Assembly: GCA_000146465.1 (NCBI GenBank)
Contig: CP001951.1
DNA length: 64,000 bases
Strand: one strand, 5' to 3'
Position 1 is the stretch's first letter. Every line of letters begins with the position of its first letter. Made by a program: the position numbers and the translations under genes. Below, in pieces: positions 2 to 55,100 of the stretch. The notes beneath the pieces are model-generated. The model saw nothing but the letters and a program-made list of their open reading frames with translations. It searched no databases and was not told the DNA's origin.

Positions 2-358
2 GAGAATATAAGGGATCTGGTTAGACTGTACAAAGAACAAGTTTCGATTAACAACAAGAGGAAGGACCTTCTTCGCAAGAAGTTAAAAGAGAGATTGGCC
101 TACTATGGATACTGGATGGTACTGAGGGCCATTGACTCGGAAATTGAGGATTTGGTTTCCCGAGAGAAGGGAAGAAAGAAGGGAATTGAGGAGGAAAGAG
201 CTCGGGAGGTTCTAGAAAAACGTTCCGAATTCATGGAATTATTCAAGGATTTCTCGGTACTTGAGGAGGACTATAGAAACTATGAGGATCTATTTGATCC
301 CAAGGAGAATGTGGATGCAAGTAGGCATGGAGTGTTTCCATACGACTACTTTTCATAA
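2..358 (+). CDS. hypothetical protein, 5' end outside window (charged, helical C-terminal fragment)
   Basis: Track ORF 95..358 stays open in the same frame back to position 2. No stop is seen upstream, so the gene starts before the window. Confidence 0.35.
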   Translation, partial: ENIRDLVRLYKEQVSINNKRKDLLRKKLKERLAYYGYWMVLRAIDSEIEDLVSREKGRKKGIEEERAREVLEKRSEFMELFKDFSVLEEDYRNYEDLFDPKENVDASRHGVFPYDYFS

Positions 359-1041: not shown

Positions 1042-1078
1042 AGGTGGAAAGAGGAAACTTGATGTTTACTACCTTTGG

Positions 1079-1495
1079 CTACTTGGCGGAAACTCCGAAG
1101 AAGAAGACAAAAGCTGTTGAATACACCGAGTAGTATATGAAGAACAGGATTGATACAACGATGTCTGGCGTGGTCATAGTGAAGCACTCTCTGCAGTTCT
1201 TGTATCCCATCCTCATTACAAACACATTATTCATGATGATGAAGAATGCCAGGAGGTTCATTATCTTTGCAATAACATGGAGAGCTTAAATTAAAGATAG
1301 CACTTACCATTTATGATTCTAAAATACAGCTTTCCTTTCTTTGCCATTGGTTTTACAAGAGACAGAGCTGTGGAATATGTTATTATAACTATGAGAACCT
1401 GGCTTCCGTAGAAATATCTTGGTGCTAGGGATGCAGTGAGGATCAGTCCGAGGAGCGATGAAATCTTTGAATTAGTAGGGCAAGGCACTTACCAT
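1079..1495 (-). CDS. small four-TM membrane protein, three exons: complement(join(1493..1495,1308..1464,1079..1284)), 121 aa
   Basis: ATG 1495..1493 is followed directly by GTAAGTG (intron 1465..1492). Exon 2 ends AAATG|GTAAGTG (intron 1285..1307). Splicing joins track ORFs 1291..1488 and 1079..1261 in frame (..RIIN-A-LHVIAKIMNLLAFF..). Confidence 0.6.
1285..1307 (-). other. spliceosomal micro-intron 2 (23 nt): GTAAGTGCTATCTTTAATTTAAG
   Basis: Same GTAAGTG / TAATTT / AAG architecture. Removal fuses exon 2 to the downstream ORF in frame. Confidence 0.55.
1465..1492 (-). other. spliceosomal micro-intron 1 (28 nt) of membrane-protein gene: GTAAGTGCCTTGCCCTACTAATTCAAAG
   Basis: 5' GTAAGTG directly after ATG; CTAAT branch-like motif 6 nt before the 3' AAG; removal keeps frame. 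Confidence 0.6.
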
Positions 1496-4345: not shown

Positions 4346-5053
4346 TCACCATTTCATGGCAGTCTTCTTAGTTTTCTTGTCCGCCTTCTTTTCTACTCCA
4401 CAGGATTCCTCTTCAAGAATTCCATCGCTTTCTTCCAACTCGGCAACATATCTCTTCTTTCGATTCTGTTTCTTTTCTCTTTCTACTGCAGCCTTGTTTG
4501 CCAAATGGAATCTGTCCTTGAGCTCTGTCCCATAGATTCCACTCTCAAGCCTGAGCATGAGCTCGTCTCCTATGTTCTTCTCGAAGTTGATTTTGTTTAA
4601 AGTTTTGAGTGCTCGGAGCTTTTCTCTTCTATTCATCTTCTTTCTTCTCACCATATACTTTGTCTTCCCGTGCTCCTTGAAGCGCTCCAACCTTCGGAGA
4701 TACTGCGTGAGTTTCGAAAGCTTCTGCTTACATTTGTGGATAATCTTTTCATCCCAGAACTCAAGATTCTCTTCTATCTGCCTGAGAGCTTCTTCGTAGT
4801 TTGAAGACAGCTTGATCTCTTCGTAGACATCTCTAGGAACATGCACCCGCTCAGGCTCCTTGATAAACAGGAAAAGCTCTTCGCCCATTTCCCGGACTGT
4901 TGCATACTTCGAGTTGGCTAGTGGGCATGAAAATCTGTCGCACAACCCAGTTACATTGTTCTTGTTCCTGCACAGAGCGTTCTCTTCTGTCTTCATCTTG
5001 AACGAGCAATAGCCTTCTCCACCTATGTTCCTCCATATGCTCTCGTCGGACAT
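4346..5053 (-). CDS. MAK16: ribosome biogenesis protein MAK16
   Basis: N-terminal Mak16 signature CSFKMKTEENALCRNKNNVTGLCDRFSCPLANSKYATVRE; basic/acidic C-terminal tail. Confidence 0.85.
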   Translation of the reverse strand: MSDESIWRNIGGEGYCSFKMKTEENALCRNKNNVTGLCDRFSCPLANSKYATVREMGEELFLFIKEPERVHVPRDVYEEIKLSSNYEEALRQIEENLEFWDEKIIHKCKQKLSKLTQYLRRLERFKEHGKTKYMVRRKKMNRREKLRALKTLNKINFEKNIGDELMLRLESGIYGTELKDRFHLANKAAVEREKKQNRKKRYVAELEESDGILEEESCGVEKKADKKTKKTAMKW

Positions 5054-26279: not shown

Positions 26280-28085
26280 ATGATTCTAGATGAGATTGTG
26301 AAGGAAGCGGCAGCGCTGCAGCTGAGGAAGGAAGACGAGAATACATGGTCTCGGGTGAACGATGTACTCATGAGGCTTTCCGGGGCAGTTGTGGGGCCGG
26401 AAGATGTGCGAAGAGTGTTAGAGAGTGTTTCCGACCTGATTGTAAGGTCGATGCAGAGTGACAGATCGAGGCTTGCAGGAACAGCCCTTGGATTTCTCAA
26501 GAACTGCATTTGCATCTTGGGAAATGAGTTTGGGATGGCAGGGCAATATCTAGTGCCTCTAGCGAAAGTATGTGGAAAGAGCAGTAAGGTGTTTTATTCA
26601 AGGGGAGAGGAAGTGCTTGTAGAACTTTGTAAGAGAGTGAATATTAAGGGACATGCAAGGTTTTTTAGCGAATACTGTGGAAGTGCCAATAAGAATGTTA
26701 GGCTTGCTATTTTCCGGGGGATTGAAGCATGGGGGAGTGAGTCTGGAAAGATAGAAGGATTGGAGAATCTTGTTATAAAGGGAAGAGAAGATGCATTTTC
26801 GGAAGTTCGAGAGGTGTGCAAAAGAATGATGGAGAAGTTCAGTATTGGGGAGAGAAAGGAAGGATGCTTTAGAAGACAGCGTTTGGAAGAGAGTCTTGAG
26901 AGTGGGGTAAAGAAAGGGCCTGTTAGAATGGCCAGGATGCCGGTGCGAGGGGGATATGGAGGAATGGAAGGAATCGGGGCAAGAGAGATGGAAAAGAAAG
27001 AGCTTGCACCCAAGTTTTCTCCGGCTAGAAAGCAAACAAAAACAGGAGATAAAGACTATGACAAGATAAGGGAGCTTTCAAGACAGGTCAAGGACATAGC
27101 CGAAGACATAAGGCCGAATGTGGGGGCTGAGAAGAGCTCAAGCGGTAGAATAAGAACCAAGATAAAAGAGATGTTCTCCAGAGGAAGTGATAAGGCAGGG
27201 ACTGTGTATCCAGAAAGTAAGGTTGAGATACCAAAGGAGGTGATGAACCATGAGGATCTAACTCCAGTGAGGTTGGACAAGTATCTCAGTAGATATCGTG
27301 AAGAGTATGGAAGGCTTATTCCCAAGAATATAACTGGAGTTAGCAATGGATTTGAAGTTGAGGATACCGAGCTAGGGGAAGAATTTCTAGAAGCCAAAGA
27401 AGTCTCTGATGAAGACAAGGCGAGGATTGGAGAAACAAAGGAAGAAGATAAGCTTAATGGGTCTTGCGAAGAGAAGAAGGAAAGGATTGTTGTTGGGAAT
27501 GAAAGCTTTGATGAGGAGATGGGACATGATTTAGAGGGAGGAGATGAAGTGTGTGCAGAGCTTGAGATCGGAGAACTTTCGAAGAGCTTAGCGAACATCT
27601 CGATCAATGAAGGAGATGTGGAGGATAAACCACATTCCGATGGAGATGGGATGTTGTCGGAGGCTTCTGGAAATCCCTACGAGAATCTTGTTGAAGGACA
27701 AGAGATGGAAAGCTCTCTTAAAGAGTACACCATAATGGATTCTGGGAAGCTAGAAGAACACAAGGAAAATAACAGGGATGAATCCCGGCTTTGTAGAGGA
27801 TCTGGGGCCTCGATCGGAGAGTCAACAATTTCGATTGACTCGGAGGTTGAGAACCAAAGAAAGGAGAGAAAGAAGGGATGTAGGAATGCTCTTGAGATGA
27901 TGAAGGGAAATCGATTTGCAGGGTTTCTTGAGTTGAGTGAAAGCAGCGAGGAAGAGACTGTATTTTCTAGAAGGCAGGGGGAAAGGAAGGAAGGAGTGGA
28001 GAAGCAAGATGCAGACAACACAGGCGACTTTACGGCGATGGACTCCCTTGTGGAGGTTAGAAGAGGGGTTTTTAGAAAGAAGTAA
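26280..28085 (+). CDS. hypothetical protein: N-terminal armadillo/HEAT-like helical region plus long acidic Glu/Ser-rich disordered C-terminal half
   Basis: 601 aa ORF with a clean ATG. The antisense serine-rich ORFs here are shadows. Confidence 0.45.
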   Translation: MILDEIVKEAAALQLRKEDENTWSRVNDVLMRLSGAVVGPEDVRRVLESVSDLIVRSMQSDRSRLAGTALGFLKNCICILGNEFGMAGQYLVPLAKVCGKSSKVFYSRGEEVLVELCKRVNIKGHARFFSEYCGSANKNVRLAIFRGIEAWGSESGKIEGLENLVIKGREDAFSEVREVCKRMMEKFSIGERKEGCFRRQRLEESLESGVKKGPVRMARMPVRGGYGGMEGIGAREMEKKELAPKFSPARKQTKTGDKDYDKIRELSRQVKDIAEDIRPNVGAEKSSSGRIRTKIKEMFSRGSDKAGTVYPESKVEIPKEVMNHEDLTPVRLDKYLSRYREEYGRLIPKNITGVSNGFEVEDTELGEEFLEAKEVSDEDKARIGETKEEDKLNGSCEEKKERIVVGNESFDEEMGHDLEGGDEVCAELEIGELSKSLANISINEGDVEDKPHSDGDGMLSEASGNPYENLVEGQEMESSLKEYTIMDSGKLEEHKENNRDESRLCRGSGASIGESTISIDSEVENQRKERKKGCRNALEMMKGNRFAGFLELSESSEEETVFSRRQGERKEGVEKQDADNTGDFTAMDSLVEVRRGVFRKK

Positions 28086-28209
28086 GAGCCTAAGGGCGAA
28101 GAAATAAAGTCTTTAAGTTAGCCAGGTTTTTGTGTTTTATGTGTGGGACGTAGAAAAAGAAGACATACTTTGAAGGTTTGTTTAAATTGTCCTGAGGAAG
28201 AACTAGTGG

Positions 28210-28394
28210 TTAGATGGCAAGTCGACCGCTCTGGGCAGTAAGCGCGGGTCTAGAGATCTCCTTGTGGGTAGTTGGGGAGTCTGTAGGGACTCTGCACCTA
28301 CCATTAAAGCGGAGGGGAACGCATGAGGGCGGAAACGCAGCAATGAGTACCTCCTGCAAGGCAGAGTCTCCAGCCTTCCGCGCCAGTCCTTTTT
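28210..28394 (+). ncRNA. candidate signal recognition particle RNA (7SL/scR1-like), Pol III transcript
   Basis: Helix-8 signature GCG-GAAA-CGC-AGCA (28329..28342) with flanking internal loops. Nested helices GCGGAGG/CCUCCUGC and GGGACUCUGC/GCAGAGUCUC; GCGCGGG/UCCGCGC stem. T5 at 28390..28394; TTTAAATTG ~25 nt upstream of the putative start. The 5' end is uncertain. Confidence 0.45.
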
Positions 28395-28460
28395 GTGGAG
28401 TATGGCTTTTGCTTTTGAAGAAGGGATGGGGATATTGCTAAAAAAAACAAAGATCCCTAC

Positions 28461-29894
28461 ATGCTTGAGAACATAAGGATAGAGCCGAAGATGAGCTACA
28501 GGAAGATAGTGGGGGTCAATGGGCCTCTTGTGATAATGGACAACATCGGGTTTCTAAAGTATGCAGAGATAGTCAGTCTGACGCTTCCTGATGGAAGTGT
28601 TAGGCAGGGACAGGTTCTGGAGGTGTGTGGAAAGAAGGCTGTGGTCCAGGTGTTTGAGGGGACGTCTGGAATAGACATCAAGGAGACACAGGTTACATTT
28701 ACAGGAGAAACATTGAAGATGGGGATTTCGGAAGACGTGCTGGGAAGGATATTCAACGGGAGCGGAAAGGTCATTGACGGAGGCCCGAACATCATTGCCG
28801 AAGACTACTTCGACATCCAGGGACAGCCCTTGAATCCATACTCCAGGATATATCCCGAGGAGATGATCCAGACTGGAATATCATCGATTGATGTGATGAA
28901 CTCGATTGCCAGGGGACAGAAGATTCCTATATTCAGTGCATCGGGGCTTCCCCACAACGAAATAGCTGCACAGATATGCAGGCAGGCAGGGCTTGTGAAG
29001 AGAAAGGACTCGATAGATAGTAGTGACGACAACTTTGCAATAGTTTTTGCAGCAATGGGGGTGAATGTAGAGACTGCAAATTTCTTCCGGAACAGCTTCG
29101 AAGCATCTGGATCGATTGGGAGGACAGCATTGTTCCTGAATCTGGCCAACGACCCCACCATCGAAAGGATCATCACGCCACGACTGGCGTTGACGGCAGC
29201 AGAATATCTTGCATATGAGAAAGAGAAGCATGTTCTTGTGATCATGACAGACATGAGTTCGTATGCAGATGCGTTGCGTGAGGTTAGTGCTGCAAGGGAA
29301 GAGGTTCCAGGAAGAAGAGGATATCCAGGATACATGTATACAGACCTTAGCACGATATACGAGAGAGCAGGGAGGCTGGAGGGAAGAAACGGATCTATCA
29401 CCCAGATCCCGATTCTAACAATGCCAAATGACGACATAACGCATCCGATTCCAGATCTCACGGGATACATCACCGAAGGACAGATTTACGTTGACAGGCA
29501 GATGCACAACAGACAGATCTATCCACCCATAAATGTGCTTCCATCATTGTCTAGGCTGATGAAAAGCGCAATTGGGGAAGGGATGACGAGAAAGGACCAT
29601 GGAGATGTGTCGAACCAACTTTATGCAAAGTATGCAATAGGCAAGGATGCCCAGGCCATGAAAGCTGTTGTGGGTGAGGATTCTCTTTCTTTGGAGGACA
29701 AGATCTCGATAGAGTTTTTGGAAAGGTTTGAGAAGGAGTTTATAAGCCAGAGACATAACGAGCTTAGGACAGTGAACCAGTCCCTGGACATTGCATGGGA
29801 TCTCCTTCGAACGTTTCCACGAGAAATGCTTAATAGAATCCCATCGGACATATTGGATGAGTTCCATTCTGTGGCGCCCTCGAGATCGGAGTAG
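28461..29894 (+). CDS. VMA2: V-type H+-ATPase subunit B
   Basis: [43 protein letters not shown]; high-confidence family match along the full length. Confidence 0.9.
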
Positions 29895-29963: not shown

Positions 29964-30128
29964 ATGAACGGAATGGGCACAGACCAGAAAGTCTTTACAT
30001 ATGTATGCATACAGTGTCCCTCGCTGAGGGAGCTGAAACTGAAGGATCCCATCAGATGCACGGAATGCGGCAACAGGGTTCTCCGCAAGAAGAGGACAGA
30101 CAATGTGGTGCAGCTGGATGCCGTCTAG
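29964..30128 (+). CDS. RPB12: DNA-directed RNA polymerases I/II/III subunit RPABC4 (Rpb12/ABC10alpha), 54 aa
   Basis: Below the 60-aa cutoff of the ORF track. Zinc-ribbon YVCIQCPSLRELKLKDPIRCTECGNRVLRKKRTDNVVQLDA matches the Rpb12 consensus. aaaccccgATG lies upstream. Confidence 0.7.
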   Translation: MNGMGTDQKVFTYVCIQCPSLRELKLKDPIRCTECGNRVLRKKRTDNVVQLDAV

Positions 30129-36883: not shown

Positions 36884-36954
36884 GGGGGATTATCTTAGTG
36901 GTAGAGGATTTGCTTCGCATGTGAATTGCCCGGGTTCGATTCCCGGATCCTCCA
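36884..36954 (+). tRNA. tRNA-Ala (anticodon CGC)
   Basis: Cloverleaf folded by hand. Anticodon loop UUCGCAU. G3:U70 Ala identity pair; discriminator A; B-box GGTTCGATTCC. T5 Pol III terminator 5 nt downstream (36960..36964). Confidence 0.85.
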
Positions 36955-44904: not shown

Positions 44905-44986
44905 TGATGTATTAAATAAACGTTCTGTCTAATGTTTCAGAATTCCAATGGAAGTGTTTACTTGAAGATGATTGTTTTCCATTCCT

Positions 44987-45250
44987 ATGGATACAGAGGA
45001 GGAAAAGGCTTTGAGGGAGTCTTCAAGAAACATGAAGACGACCGTCCAGATAATACAGGAGAAGATGGACCAGCAAGCTTTAATATACGAATCCATTGAG
45101 GCCGAAACAGAAAGAAATGGGAAGATTTTGTTCCTGAACATTCGAAGGTTCGAAGAAGCAATCAGGAGAATGAACAGCGATCCAAGGAACAAAATAATAT
45201 TTATGTTATTTCTGGTGATTGTAGGATGCAGTGGATATCTATTCTTTTAG
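44987..45250 (+). CDS. small tail-anchored SNARE (Bet1/Sft1-like)
   Basis: 87 aa: heptad SNARE helix followed by C-terminal TM IIFMLFLVIVGCSGYLFF. Track start 44972 is TTG; ATG at 44987. Confidence 0.45.
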   Translation: MDTEEEKALRESSRNMKTTVQIIQEKMDQQALIYESIEAETERNGKILFLNIRRFEEAIRRMNSDPRNKIIFMLFLVIVGCSGYLFF

Positions 45251-45269
45251 TTGCCCATTCCTCGATAAA

Positions 45270-52193: not shown

Positions 52194-55100
52194 ATGCCTA
52201 ATATGGAAGACAGCCTGAATCTTTGGTTATTTTCAAAAGACATCGAAACCGCAATGAGAGACGAGCTTCTAGAGGAGCAATATGGATTTATATCTCACCA
52301 TGAAAGCAGAAGAAGAGAGGGATGGGTCCTGAACTACATCACTACTGTATTCAAAGACGGGAGAATGGAAGCAAAGCTTTATCTGATTGATGACAAGAGA
52401 GCCGAATTTCTTGTGAAGATTCCATATTTTCCATCTCTTCTCCTTAAAGCTTCGGATTATGATTCTGTTGAAGAATATCTCAGGAGAAAATATGCAGCAG
52501 AGATTTACAGCATGGAGAGAGTGCATAGAATTGACTTTAACGAATACAATCATCTGAACAAAGACCCAGGAGTGTTTCTAGAGGTTAGATTCAGGACCGA
52601 GTCTGGGTTTTCAACAGCTGTGAAGGACTTCAAGAAGATAGTGGCAAGGAACAAAGTGCAGAAGAATAATGAATATGATTGCTTTGGAAAGGATCGAACA
52701 CTCTGCGCAGAGGAACTTATGGAGGGAATCTTCGAGTATGATATTCCTGTAGAGGTTTGCACGGCCAACAACCTGAAGATCAGATGTGGAAAGTGGTATA
52801 CTTTCTACTATACCGGAGAGACATATGTTATAGAGAAGAGCGAAAGAGTCGTGTTTCCAGATCTTCGGATACTTGCATTTGATATCGAGACATTCAAAAA
52901 GCCGCTGAAATTTCCTAATCCAGACTATGATGAGGTGATGATGATATCTGTTAAAACAGAATGCAGGGGAGAATTGATTGTGAACCGGAGGCTGGTTTCT
53001 AAAGACATCAGGAAGTTTGAGTACAATCCAAGAGAAGACATGGAGTGTGTGTTTGATGTGTCGAACGAGGGAGACGAAGAAGGGGTGCTGATTAGATTTG
53101 TTGAGTTGATTCAAAAACACAAACCACACTTGATAACAACGTTTAATGGAGCATTATTTGACTTTCCGTTCCTGGAGAAAAGGATGAAGAACTATGGAAT
53201 AAGCCTGAGGGAGACAACTGGATTTACTCTGAAGGATGAATACTACATTTCACCGTTTATTGTGCATCTTGATTGCTACAAATGGGTTAAAAGAGACTCG
53301 TATCTTCCGGCAGGGAGCCAGGGTCTCAAGGAGGTCACTAAAGTGAAACTAGGATACTTCCCTGACGAGATTGATCCTGAAGACATGGTTAGGCTTGCAA
53401 TGTCCGACCCCGACAAAATGGCATCTTATTCTGTTTCGGATTCGGTTGCAACATACTTTCTTTACACCAAATATGTCCAGCCTCATGTTTTTTCCCTATG
53501 CTCTCTTGTTCCTCTCTCTCCGACCTCGGCACTTTGCCAGGGGTCTGGAACACTGTGTGAAGCTCTGCTTGTCTCTGAAGCCATTGAATACGGGGTGCTT
53601 ATCCCAGAAAGGAGGAGAGAAAGCAAAACCCGAGAGCACAACGGACACATAGCAGAAAGCATCACATATGTTGGAGGATATGTCGAGTGTCTCCGGTCCG
53701 GGATTTTTCGGTCTGACCTGGAGCATGAATTTAACATCTCTAAAGAATTCATTGGAGAAGTGGTTTCAAGCCTTGACGAAATTCTCTATGAGTACAAGGA
53801 AGAAGGAGGTTTTGAAGAGATGAAAGCACAGATTCTTGCCAATCTTCAGGAGAACAAGGGAAGACTTCGAAAGGAGGGGCTTATATATCATCTGGATGTT
53901 GGAGCAATGTATCCAAACATCATACTTACCAACAAACTGCAGCCTGTGTCAATTGTTAACGAAGAGATCTGCATAAGATGTGACTTTTCGGATGAGTCGA
54001 ACAATTGTAAGAAAAGAATGGAATGGAGCCTTAAGGTCGAGTACATTCCGGCTGGTAAGAGGGAAACCGAGATGATTAGGAGGCAGGTAGAGAAGGAAAA
54101 GAACTTTGAAGGAAATGAGGAAGAAGAGGTGAAGAAGAGGGTCAGAAGGTATTCGAAGAGTATGTACGGAAAGAAAAGGGAAAAGAAGATTTGTACTAGA
54201 AGTTCGACAGTTTGTCAGAGGGAGATTCCATTCTATGTGGAAACAGTTAGAAAATTCAGGGACCAAAGATATGTGTATAAGAGGCTGCAAGCCCAGGCAC
54301 AAAAGGCTGCTGAGGAAGCCACAACCGATGAGGAAAGAAAGTATGCGATGAAGTCTGTTGTTGTGTACTCCTCGCTCCAAGTGGCACACAAATGTGTTCT
54401 AAACTCGTTCTATGGATATGTGATGAGAAAAAGCTCACGGTGGTACAGCATGGAGATGGCGGCGATAGTTTGCAATGTAGGAGGGAACATTATTAAGAAG
54501 GCCCGAGAGATTGTGGAGAAGATAGGGATTTCCTTGGAACTGGATACCGACGGAATATGGTGCATAGTTCCATCTTCATTGGTATCTTCATATGTACTCC
54601 CGTCGGGGAAGAAGTTTTCTCTCTTGTCAGGCCTCCTCAACCACTTTGTATGTAAGAAATTTACAAACAACCAATACCAGGAGAAGATTGATGGGGAGTA
54701 TGCCACAAGAAGTGAGAATTCGATATTCTTTGAGATTGATGGGCCGTACAGGGCAATGCTTCTTCCTACGTCGACCGAGGAAAGCAAATTGCTGAAGAAG
54801 AGATATGCAATAATCGATGACAACAACAAGATTGCCGAATTGAAAGGATTTGAGATGAAAAGGAGAGGAGAGCTCCAGATTACTAAGAAGTTCCAGGAGG
54901 AGCTTTTTCTACACTTCCTTGATGGGAGTAACTTAAACGAATGCTATGAGTCGCTGGCCGAGGTGTGCAGATACTGGCTAGACATACTAAAGAGCAAGGG
55001 AGAATATCTTGATGACGATACGATTCTTGAGTTACTGTCTGAGAGCAGAAGTATGTCTAAGGGATTTGGGGAATACAGAGGAAGAAAGTCGAACCTCACT

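Follow-up and report, generated by a model that had tools for sequence, protein, structure and literature searches.

An SRP RNA gene with conserved flanking signals upstream of the V-ATPase subunit B gene of Encephalitozoon intestinalis

Gene content of the locus

The DNA analysed here is a stretch of 64 kb, referred to as the window. Within it, a CLASP_N-like gene (26280..28085) and the gene for V-ATPase subunit B (28461..29894) are separated by a gap of 375 bp (28086..28460). Between the encoded V-ATPase B and its counterpart in Encephalitozoon intestinalis ATCC 50506, protein identity is 100%, and E. intestinalis assemblies contain the locus. An earlier note, made from the letters of the sequence, had placed a candidate gene for signal recognition particle (SRP) RNA in this gap; all strings quoted there were recovered, each no more than a few bases away from its stated position. 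The GC content of the proposed RNA body is 56.8% compared to 43.9% for the whole window, which agrees with the description of the gap as GC-rich.

The gap had also been called the largest non-coding one of the window, and this is probably right. In a crude scan for stretches lacking ORFs of 100 aa or more, it comes third, but both longer stretches are otherwise explained, one as an artefact of the window edge, the other by an apparent intron-bearing gene on the minus strand, which accounts for the ORF-free gap at 1042..1442. In this gene, two copies of AAATGGTAAGTGC are present on the minus strand (about 1130..1495), placing 5' splice sites at 1492 and 1307. Of these, the first directly follows an ATG and is itself followed by TACTAAT...AG, suggesting an intron of 28 nt (1492..1465), while a hydrophobic ORF of about 121 aa stays open if a second candidate intron of 23 nt (1307..1285) is removed. 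No Pfam match was obtained with the spliced product. Next in rank is the stretch 44905..45269, which is largely filled by a short ORF at 44972..45250 (+), 92 aa long if started at TTG and 87 aa from the first ATG. It ends in a C-terminal hydrophobic tail, giving it the shape of a tail-anchored protein, and was likewise without a Pfam match. Just downstream of the V-ATPase B gene, at about 29964..30128 (+; 4504..4668 of sequence L002), a gene for a Zn_ribbon_RPAB4 protein of 54 aa, a small RNA polymerase subunit, is located. One E. intestinalis assembly includes this gene call, which is missing from another one and from several sister species, indicating inconsistent annotation.

The gap itself contains an ATG-initiated frame of 75 aa (28214..28441, plus strand), which could be taken to encode a small protein. 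It has no Pfam match, however, and stop codons occur within its length in eight of nine orthologues, the ninth lacking the ATG. The insertions and deletions in the alignment are also not multiples of three. With the frame broken in the orthologues and no Pfam match, the coding interpretation was rejected; its probability is considered negligible.

Sequence conservation and consensus structure of the RNA

Searches with Rfam covariance models revealed one SRP match in the 64 kb, to RF00017 (Metazoa_SRP; clan CL00003) at 28240..28384 (+), with a score of 70.7 bits and an E-value of 9.4e-16 over the whole window. The curated gathering score of RF00017 is 70 bits, and the search, which had been proposed as a check in the earlier note, was thus positive by 0.7 bits. 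The match covers model positions 101-249, which correspond to helices 5, 6, and 8, and includes none of the Alu domain. At the orthologous loci (n=10), scores of 56-74 bits with E-values of at most 1.1e-11 were obtained. Two of them, L011 and L005, reach the threshold, and the other eight are below it (56-69 bits). The small margin and the sub-threshold scores of the eight orthologues can be attributed to the Alu domain, one third of the model, which has no counterpart in these RNAs. When the whole window was scanned with Rfam under permissive settings, no ncRNA beyond those already found was obtained.

For comparison, V-ATPase B loci of E. cuniculi, E. romaleae, E. hellem, Ordospora colligata, O. 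pajunii, and four relatives represented by sequencing-run assemblies were used. The ten related loci fetched stem from nine distinct genomes, and the RNA alignment comprises ten species. All ten related loci contain a match to the SRP S domain in the same position relative to V-ATPase B, on its upstream side, and the conserved block measures 189-193 nt in all ten species. Conservation of the gap in related genomes had been suggested as another check; gap and RNA are kept in every one examined.

Folding of the ten aligned RNAs by RNAalifold resulted in a consensus structure of 57 pairs, 22 of which are maintained through changes on both sides. When pairing was counted independently on the alignment, 96.8% of the cells were standard pairs. 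None of 500 column shuffles reached the observed values for pairing, number of compensatory pairs, or covariation score, and in controls with shifted register 37-53% of the cells were paired. The unguided minimum free energy fold of 28205..28394 shows the same architecture, including a 5' hairpin (z = -2.59).

The conserved structure begins with this 5' hairpin (28205..28230, plus strand), a remnant of the Alu domain that is missing from the description in the earlier note. It consists of 10 bp, four of which show changes on both sides, with 94% of the cells paired, and is closed by a GNRA or GNNRA loop, GGCAA in the window. It is followed by the 5' strand of a closing helix of 4 bp, formed by GGGC (28233..28236) and GUCC (28386..28389), in which 95% of the cells are paired and the third pair is G-U, A-U, or G-C depending on the species. 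Overlapping this 5' strand, the junction motif GGCAGUAAG (28234..28242, plus strand) is conserved in all ten species; its single-stranded part, 28237..28241, reads AG(U/C)AA throughout. Helix 5, the scaffold, is built from 28242..28266 and 28355..28383 and comprises 17 pairs in three segments, seven of them compensatory, with 95-100% of the cells paired. The stem GCGCGGG/UCCGCGC reported before is present here, its strands being located at 28242..28248 and, as TCCGCGC in the DNA, at 28377..28383. Helix 6 is a hairpin at 28267..28302 with the tetraloop GUAG (28283..28286). Ten of its 15 pairs have undergone compensatory changes, and the loop conforms to GNAR, the expected SRP19 site, in nine of the ten species.

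Helix 8 (28311..28354, plus strand) is almost invariant among the ten species and constitutes the expected site for the M domain of SRP54. Its GAAA loop (28332..28335) and the symmetric loop formed by GAGG (28325..28328) and AGCA (28339..28342) are identical in all of them; an asymmetric loop is located below. The core string GCGGAAACGCAGCA was found at 28329..28342. Helix 8 is equal to the Rfam consensus AGGgcgGAAAcgcAGCA at every position of this core, which had been reported to match the human sequence at 12 of 14 positions. The symmetric 4x4 loop and the adjoining CAU/AUG stem were also correctly recognized from the E. intestinalis sequence. For the enclosing helix GCGGAGG/CCUCC-U-GC, with GCGGAGG at 28309..28315 and CCTCCTGC at 28350..28357, the outcome was mixed: GGAGG/CCUCC is part of the consensus, but the two basal G-C pairs (GC...U-GC) are absent from it.

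A further helix of 10 bp, GGGACUCUGC/GCAGAGUCUC, had been thought to enclose the apex. The complementarity exists in the E. intestinalis sequence, between GGGACTCTGC at 28286..28295 and GCAGAGTCTC at 28361..28370, but only 64% of the cells are paired across species, compensatory changes are not observed at all, and the values are no better than those of shuffles. Its 5' strand is part of helix 6, which explains the lack of conservation. Pairing of 28286-95 with 28361-70 was therefore rejected in favor of helices 6 and 5, in which GGGACUCU forms the 3' side of helix 6 and GCAGAGUC is paired to the 5' side of helix 5.

From these analyses, the region belongs to the SRP RNA family: the covariance score, the helix 8 loops, the GNAR loop of helix 6, and a covarying helix 5 are all present. 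One hallmark of eukaryotic SRP RNAs, the canonical Alu domain, is lacking. The 5' domain is a single hairpin, and no UGUNR motif is conserved within RNA positions 1-45 of the ten species. The absence of Alu helices 3 and 4 had been noticed before and agrees with the literature on the genus (PMC8137916; PMC5499648). Since this departure is already documented, it identifies a reduced variant and does not argue against membership. Based on the Rfam match, the conserved block, and the covarying structure, 28205..28394 on the plus strand is almost certainly the single-copy SRP (7SL-type) RNA gene of E. intestinalis, specifying about 190 nt that mostly represent the S domain. The assignment made in the earlier note is hence upheld by the covariance-model match, the covariation among ten species, and the conservation in every related genome examined.

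Comparison with known SRP RNAs and predicted function

An SRP RNA of E. cuniculi was reportedly predicted by Rosenblad et al. in 2004. According to a survey of microsporidian ncRNAs (Belkorchia et al. 2017, PMC5499648), SRP RNA is among the Encephalitozoon ncRNAs already contained in Rfam 12, and all 18 ncRNAs of E. cuniculi, SRP RNA included, were validated by 5' and 3' RACE. The same text ascribes an 'uncommon Alu domain' to the Encephalitozoon SRP RNA and reports SRP9/14 and SRP68/72 as absent from the genus, and the E. cuniculi RNA has been described as completely devoid of helices H3 and H4 (PMC8137916). The Encephalitozoon SRP RNA is thus already published, as are its lack of Alu helices 3/4 and the loss of SRP9/14, and the locus described here is its E. 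intestinalis copy. The designation of the RNA as unannotated is correct only with respect to protein gene calls, but not for the RNA as such. As this reduced SRP RNA was already known from the genus, the identity of the feature is not novel; the significance is mostly one of annotation, because gene calls restricted to proteins leave the SRP RNA locus blank.

The direct orthologue is the E. cuniculi SRP RNA, encoded upstream of V-ATPase B (1229..1421 of L005) and scoring 73 bits with Rfam. Both RNAs share the 5' hairpin, helices 5, 6, and 8, and a non-canonical Alu domain without helices 3/4. With 193 nt in E. cuniculi and 190 nt in E. intestinalis, they differ only by substitutions at the species level, many of them compensatory. 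Similarity to metazoan 7SL RNA (RF00017) extends to the GNRA loop and the AGG.../AGCA arrangement of helix 8, the GNAR loop of helix 6, the helix 5 scaffold, and the T-run. In contrast to the metazoan RNA, however, the E. intestinalis RNA is about 110 nt shorter and lacks helices 3/4, the loop-loop pseudoknot, and UGUNR, and the partners SRP9/14 and SRP68/72 are reported to be absent from Encephalitozoon (PMC5499648). The SRP RNAs of ascomycetes and basidiomycetes (S. cerevisiae scR1, S. pombe, C. neoformans; PMC4605306) are likewise without helices 3 and 4, but they possess UGUNR along with Srp14/Srp21 (PMC4605306), where the Encephalitozoon junction reads AG(U/C)AA. They are also much larger, and none of the extra fungal helices 9-11 is found in the E. 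intestinalis RNA. The UGUNR motif, said to be kept universally in fungal SRP Alu domains (PMC4605306), is therefore not maintained in the ten RNAs compared here.

By analogy to these systems, the GNRA tetraloop of helix 8, together with the symmetric and asymmetric loops, would bind the M domain of SRP54, the GNAR tetraloop of helix 6 would serve SRP19, and helix 5 would act as the scaffold. The particle should, judged by homology, recognize signal peptides on nascent chains and target the ribosome to the ER. Its Alu domain, responsible for elongation arrest, is reduced to the 5' hairpin, the 4-bp closing helix, and the single-stranded junction AG(U/C)AA. Without helices 3/4 and UGUNR, this arrangement fits the reported absence of SRP9/14, and of SRP68/72, from the genus. 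For the reduced 5' domain, the alignment of ten species provides a well-supported secondary structure.

Flanking signals and transcription

Two signals are conserved upstream of the RNA. The first is the 10-mer CGTAGAAAAA at 28149..28158 (+; -56..-47), a candidate upstream promoter element. It is identical in all ten species (L004-L014 and the window), starts exactly 56 nt before the RNA without a single insertion or deletion in between, and occurs once per locus. The spacers flanking it are only about 32-34% identical, which is near random. The second signal, the TATA-like box TTTAAATT at 28181..28188 (+; -24..-17), is conserved in position in the ten species, with a mean identity of 73% and the sequence ATATAAT in Ordospora. 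This box corresponds to the TTTAAATTG element that had been reported about 25 nt before the 5' end, and which was indeed located at 28181..28189, 24 nt before 28205. At the other end, the TTTTT at 28390..28394 (+) follows the GCGCGGG/UCCGCGC stem as described before. It represents a Pol III-type terminator and is found as a run of 4-5 T at one alignment position in all ten species.

Between the 10-mer and the upstream gene lie about 23 to 312 nt, depending on the locus, and between the RNA end and the start codon of the V-ATPase gene 35 to 255 nt. From the variable distances to both neighbors it appears that the 10-mer travels with the SRP RNA gene. At two loci, L012 and L013, the SRP match is present even though the upstream neighbor is a TAF1-like gene (DUF3591 plus bromodomain) and not a CLASP_N-like gene. 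Synteny is broken there directly upstream of the 10-mer, a break that delimits the SRP RNA gene unit on its 5' side.

These observations also bear on the proposal that no independent RNA is made from the region, which would then only be transcribed as part of an mRNA, either as 5' leader of V-ATPase B or as read-through tail of the upstream gene. Microsporidian transcripts often overlap their neighbors, and the region is on the same strand as the V-ATPase B gene, 66 nt upstream of its ATG. An mRNA leader should, however, not match an SRP covariance model and show 22 covarying pairs. The terminator is conserved at the RNA end, the length of the RNA is constant (189-193 nt) despite the 35 to 255 nt to the ATG, and the region has its own upstream signals, which are kept even where the upstream gene differs. 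Furthermore, the E. cuniculi orthologue was validated by RACE as a discrete ncRNA (PMC5499648). A mere leader or tail is therefore regarded as very improbable.

The SRP RNA gene is most likely transcribed from an external promoter by RNA polymerase III, with termination in the T-run. The TATA-like box at -24..-17 and the T-run are in accordance with such a promoter. In none of the ten RNAs was an A or B box detected by a scan in which the B-box control, the tRNA gene of the window, was positive and the A-box control was not. TATA-like boxes have been described upstream of 17 of the 18 E. cuniculi ncRNA genes, the exception being the U46 C/D snoRNA. In the same survey (PMC5499648), no Pol III signal except TATA was found, recruitment by TATA alone is proposed, and a CCC/GGG motif is reported near every transcription start (PMC5499648). 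Between the TATA-like box and 28205, no CCC/GGG motif was found in E. intestinalis.

The 5' end of the RNA should be located at about 28205, probably to within about 5 nt, and the 3' end within the T-run. A longer transcript of about 245 nt, starting near 28150 at or close to the 10-mer and containing CGTAGAAAAA as well as the A/T-rich box, was also considered. The Encephalitozoon RNA has been described as '60 nt shorter' than the homologous RNAs of human and yeast (PMC5499648), which for the human homologue would imply about 240 nt, not obviously equal to 190 nt and close to the 245 nt of 28150..28394. A GGG is also present at 28145..28147, just upstream of the 10-mer, and GGG/CCC is reported near starts in the same source. 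On the other hand, the regions -46..-25 and -16..-1 are only 32% and 46% identical, without any insertions or deletions, and a consensus fold including the flanks placed no pairs in -56..-1. Fixed spacing without conservation of sequence or pairing is typical of a promoter and not of a structured RNA. The A/T-rich box is fixed in position and varies in sequence, which is the behavior of TATA boxes, and for this class of genes the TATA-like box has been placed upstream of the start (PMC5499648). The longer transcript is consequently judged unlikely, and a start at about 28205 is preferred.

With this start, the TATA-like box at -24 would make up the promoter, perhaps with a contribution from CGTAGAAAAA at -56. 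Type 3 Pol III promoters, such as those of vertebrate U6 and 7SK genes, contain a PSE at about -55 and a TATA box at about -25. The arrangement in E. intestinalis is alike in several respects: an element at -56..-47, an A/T-rich box at -24..-17, strictly fixed spacing, a T-run, and no A or B box found. The 10-mer and the TATA-like box together therefore suggest a gene-external, type-3-like promoter. To our knowledge, no PSE or USE consensus is similar to CGTAGAAAAA. The 10-mer could be a proximal-sequence-type element of an external Pol III promoter, an idea put forward tentatively and with somewhat more doubt than confidence. Such a signal, and the 10-mer itself, are not mentioned in the available part of the published survey of microsporidian ncRNA promoters (PMC5499648), and a full-text literature search for the motif returned only unrelated matches of the primer type. 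The invariant -56 element may thus be the sole item going beyond the literature; its invariance demonstrates constraint rather than function. Should the element also be present at the genes for U6, RNase P, and MRP, it would be useful for understanding Pol III recruitment in a minimal eukaryote.

Within the 64-kb window, no other copy of the 10-mer in a promoter-like context was detected. One copy at 54904 on the minus strand lies antisense inside an ORF of 1796 aa and is consistent with chance. The same applies to a copy with one mismatch at 1407, which is not followed by a TATA box and is located in the apparent intron-bearing gene. A metagenome scan with the pattern CGTAGAAAAA-N21-23-TTTAAAT hit at least 120 contigs, with an SRP core downstream in none among the matches listed, so that the pattern is evidently not long enough for a specific search. 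The tRNA gene of the window, specifying tRNA-Ala (anticodon CGC) at 36884..36954 (+), scored 54.6 bits with Rfam. It is without CGTAGAAAAA upstream, contains a B box, and is followed by TTTTT 6 nt downstream.

Two more distant V-ATPase B loci, those of Nosema granulosis (L015) and Glugoides intestinalis (L016), showed neither an SRP match nor the 10-mer; a divergent, AT-rich SRP RNA could escape such searches. The lack of an SRP match at both loci suggests that linkage to V-ATPase B is confined to the Encephalitozoon/Ordospora clade. The G. intestinalis locus contains, at 116..179 (+), a match resembling the C/D-box snoRNA snoR38, which with 38.1 bits and an E-value of 0.0025 is below the gathering score of 45 and in which C, D', C', and D boxes are clearly discernible.
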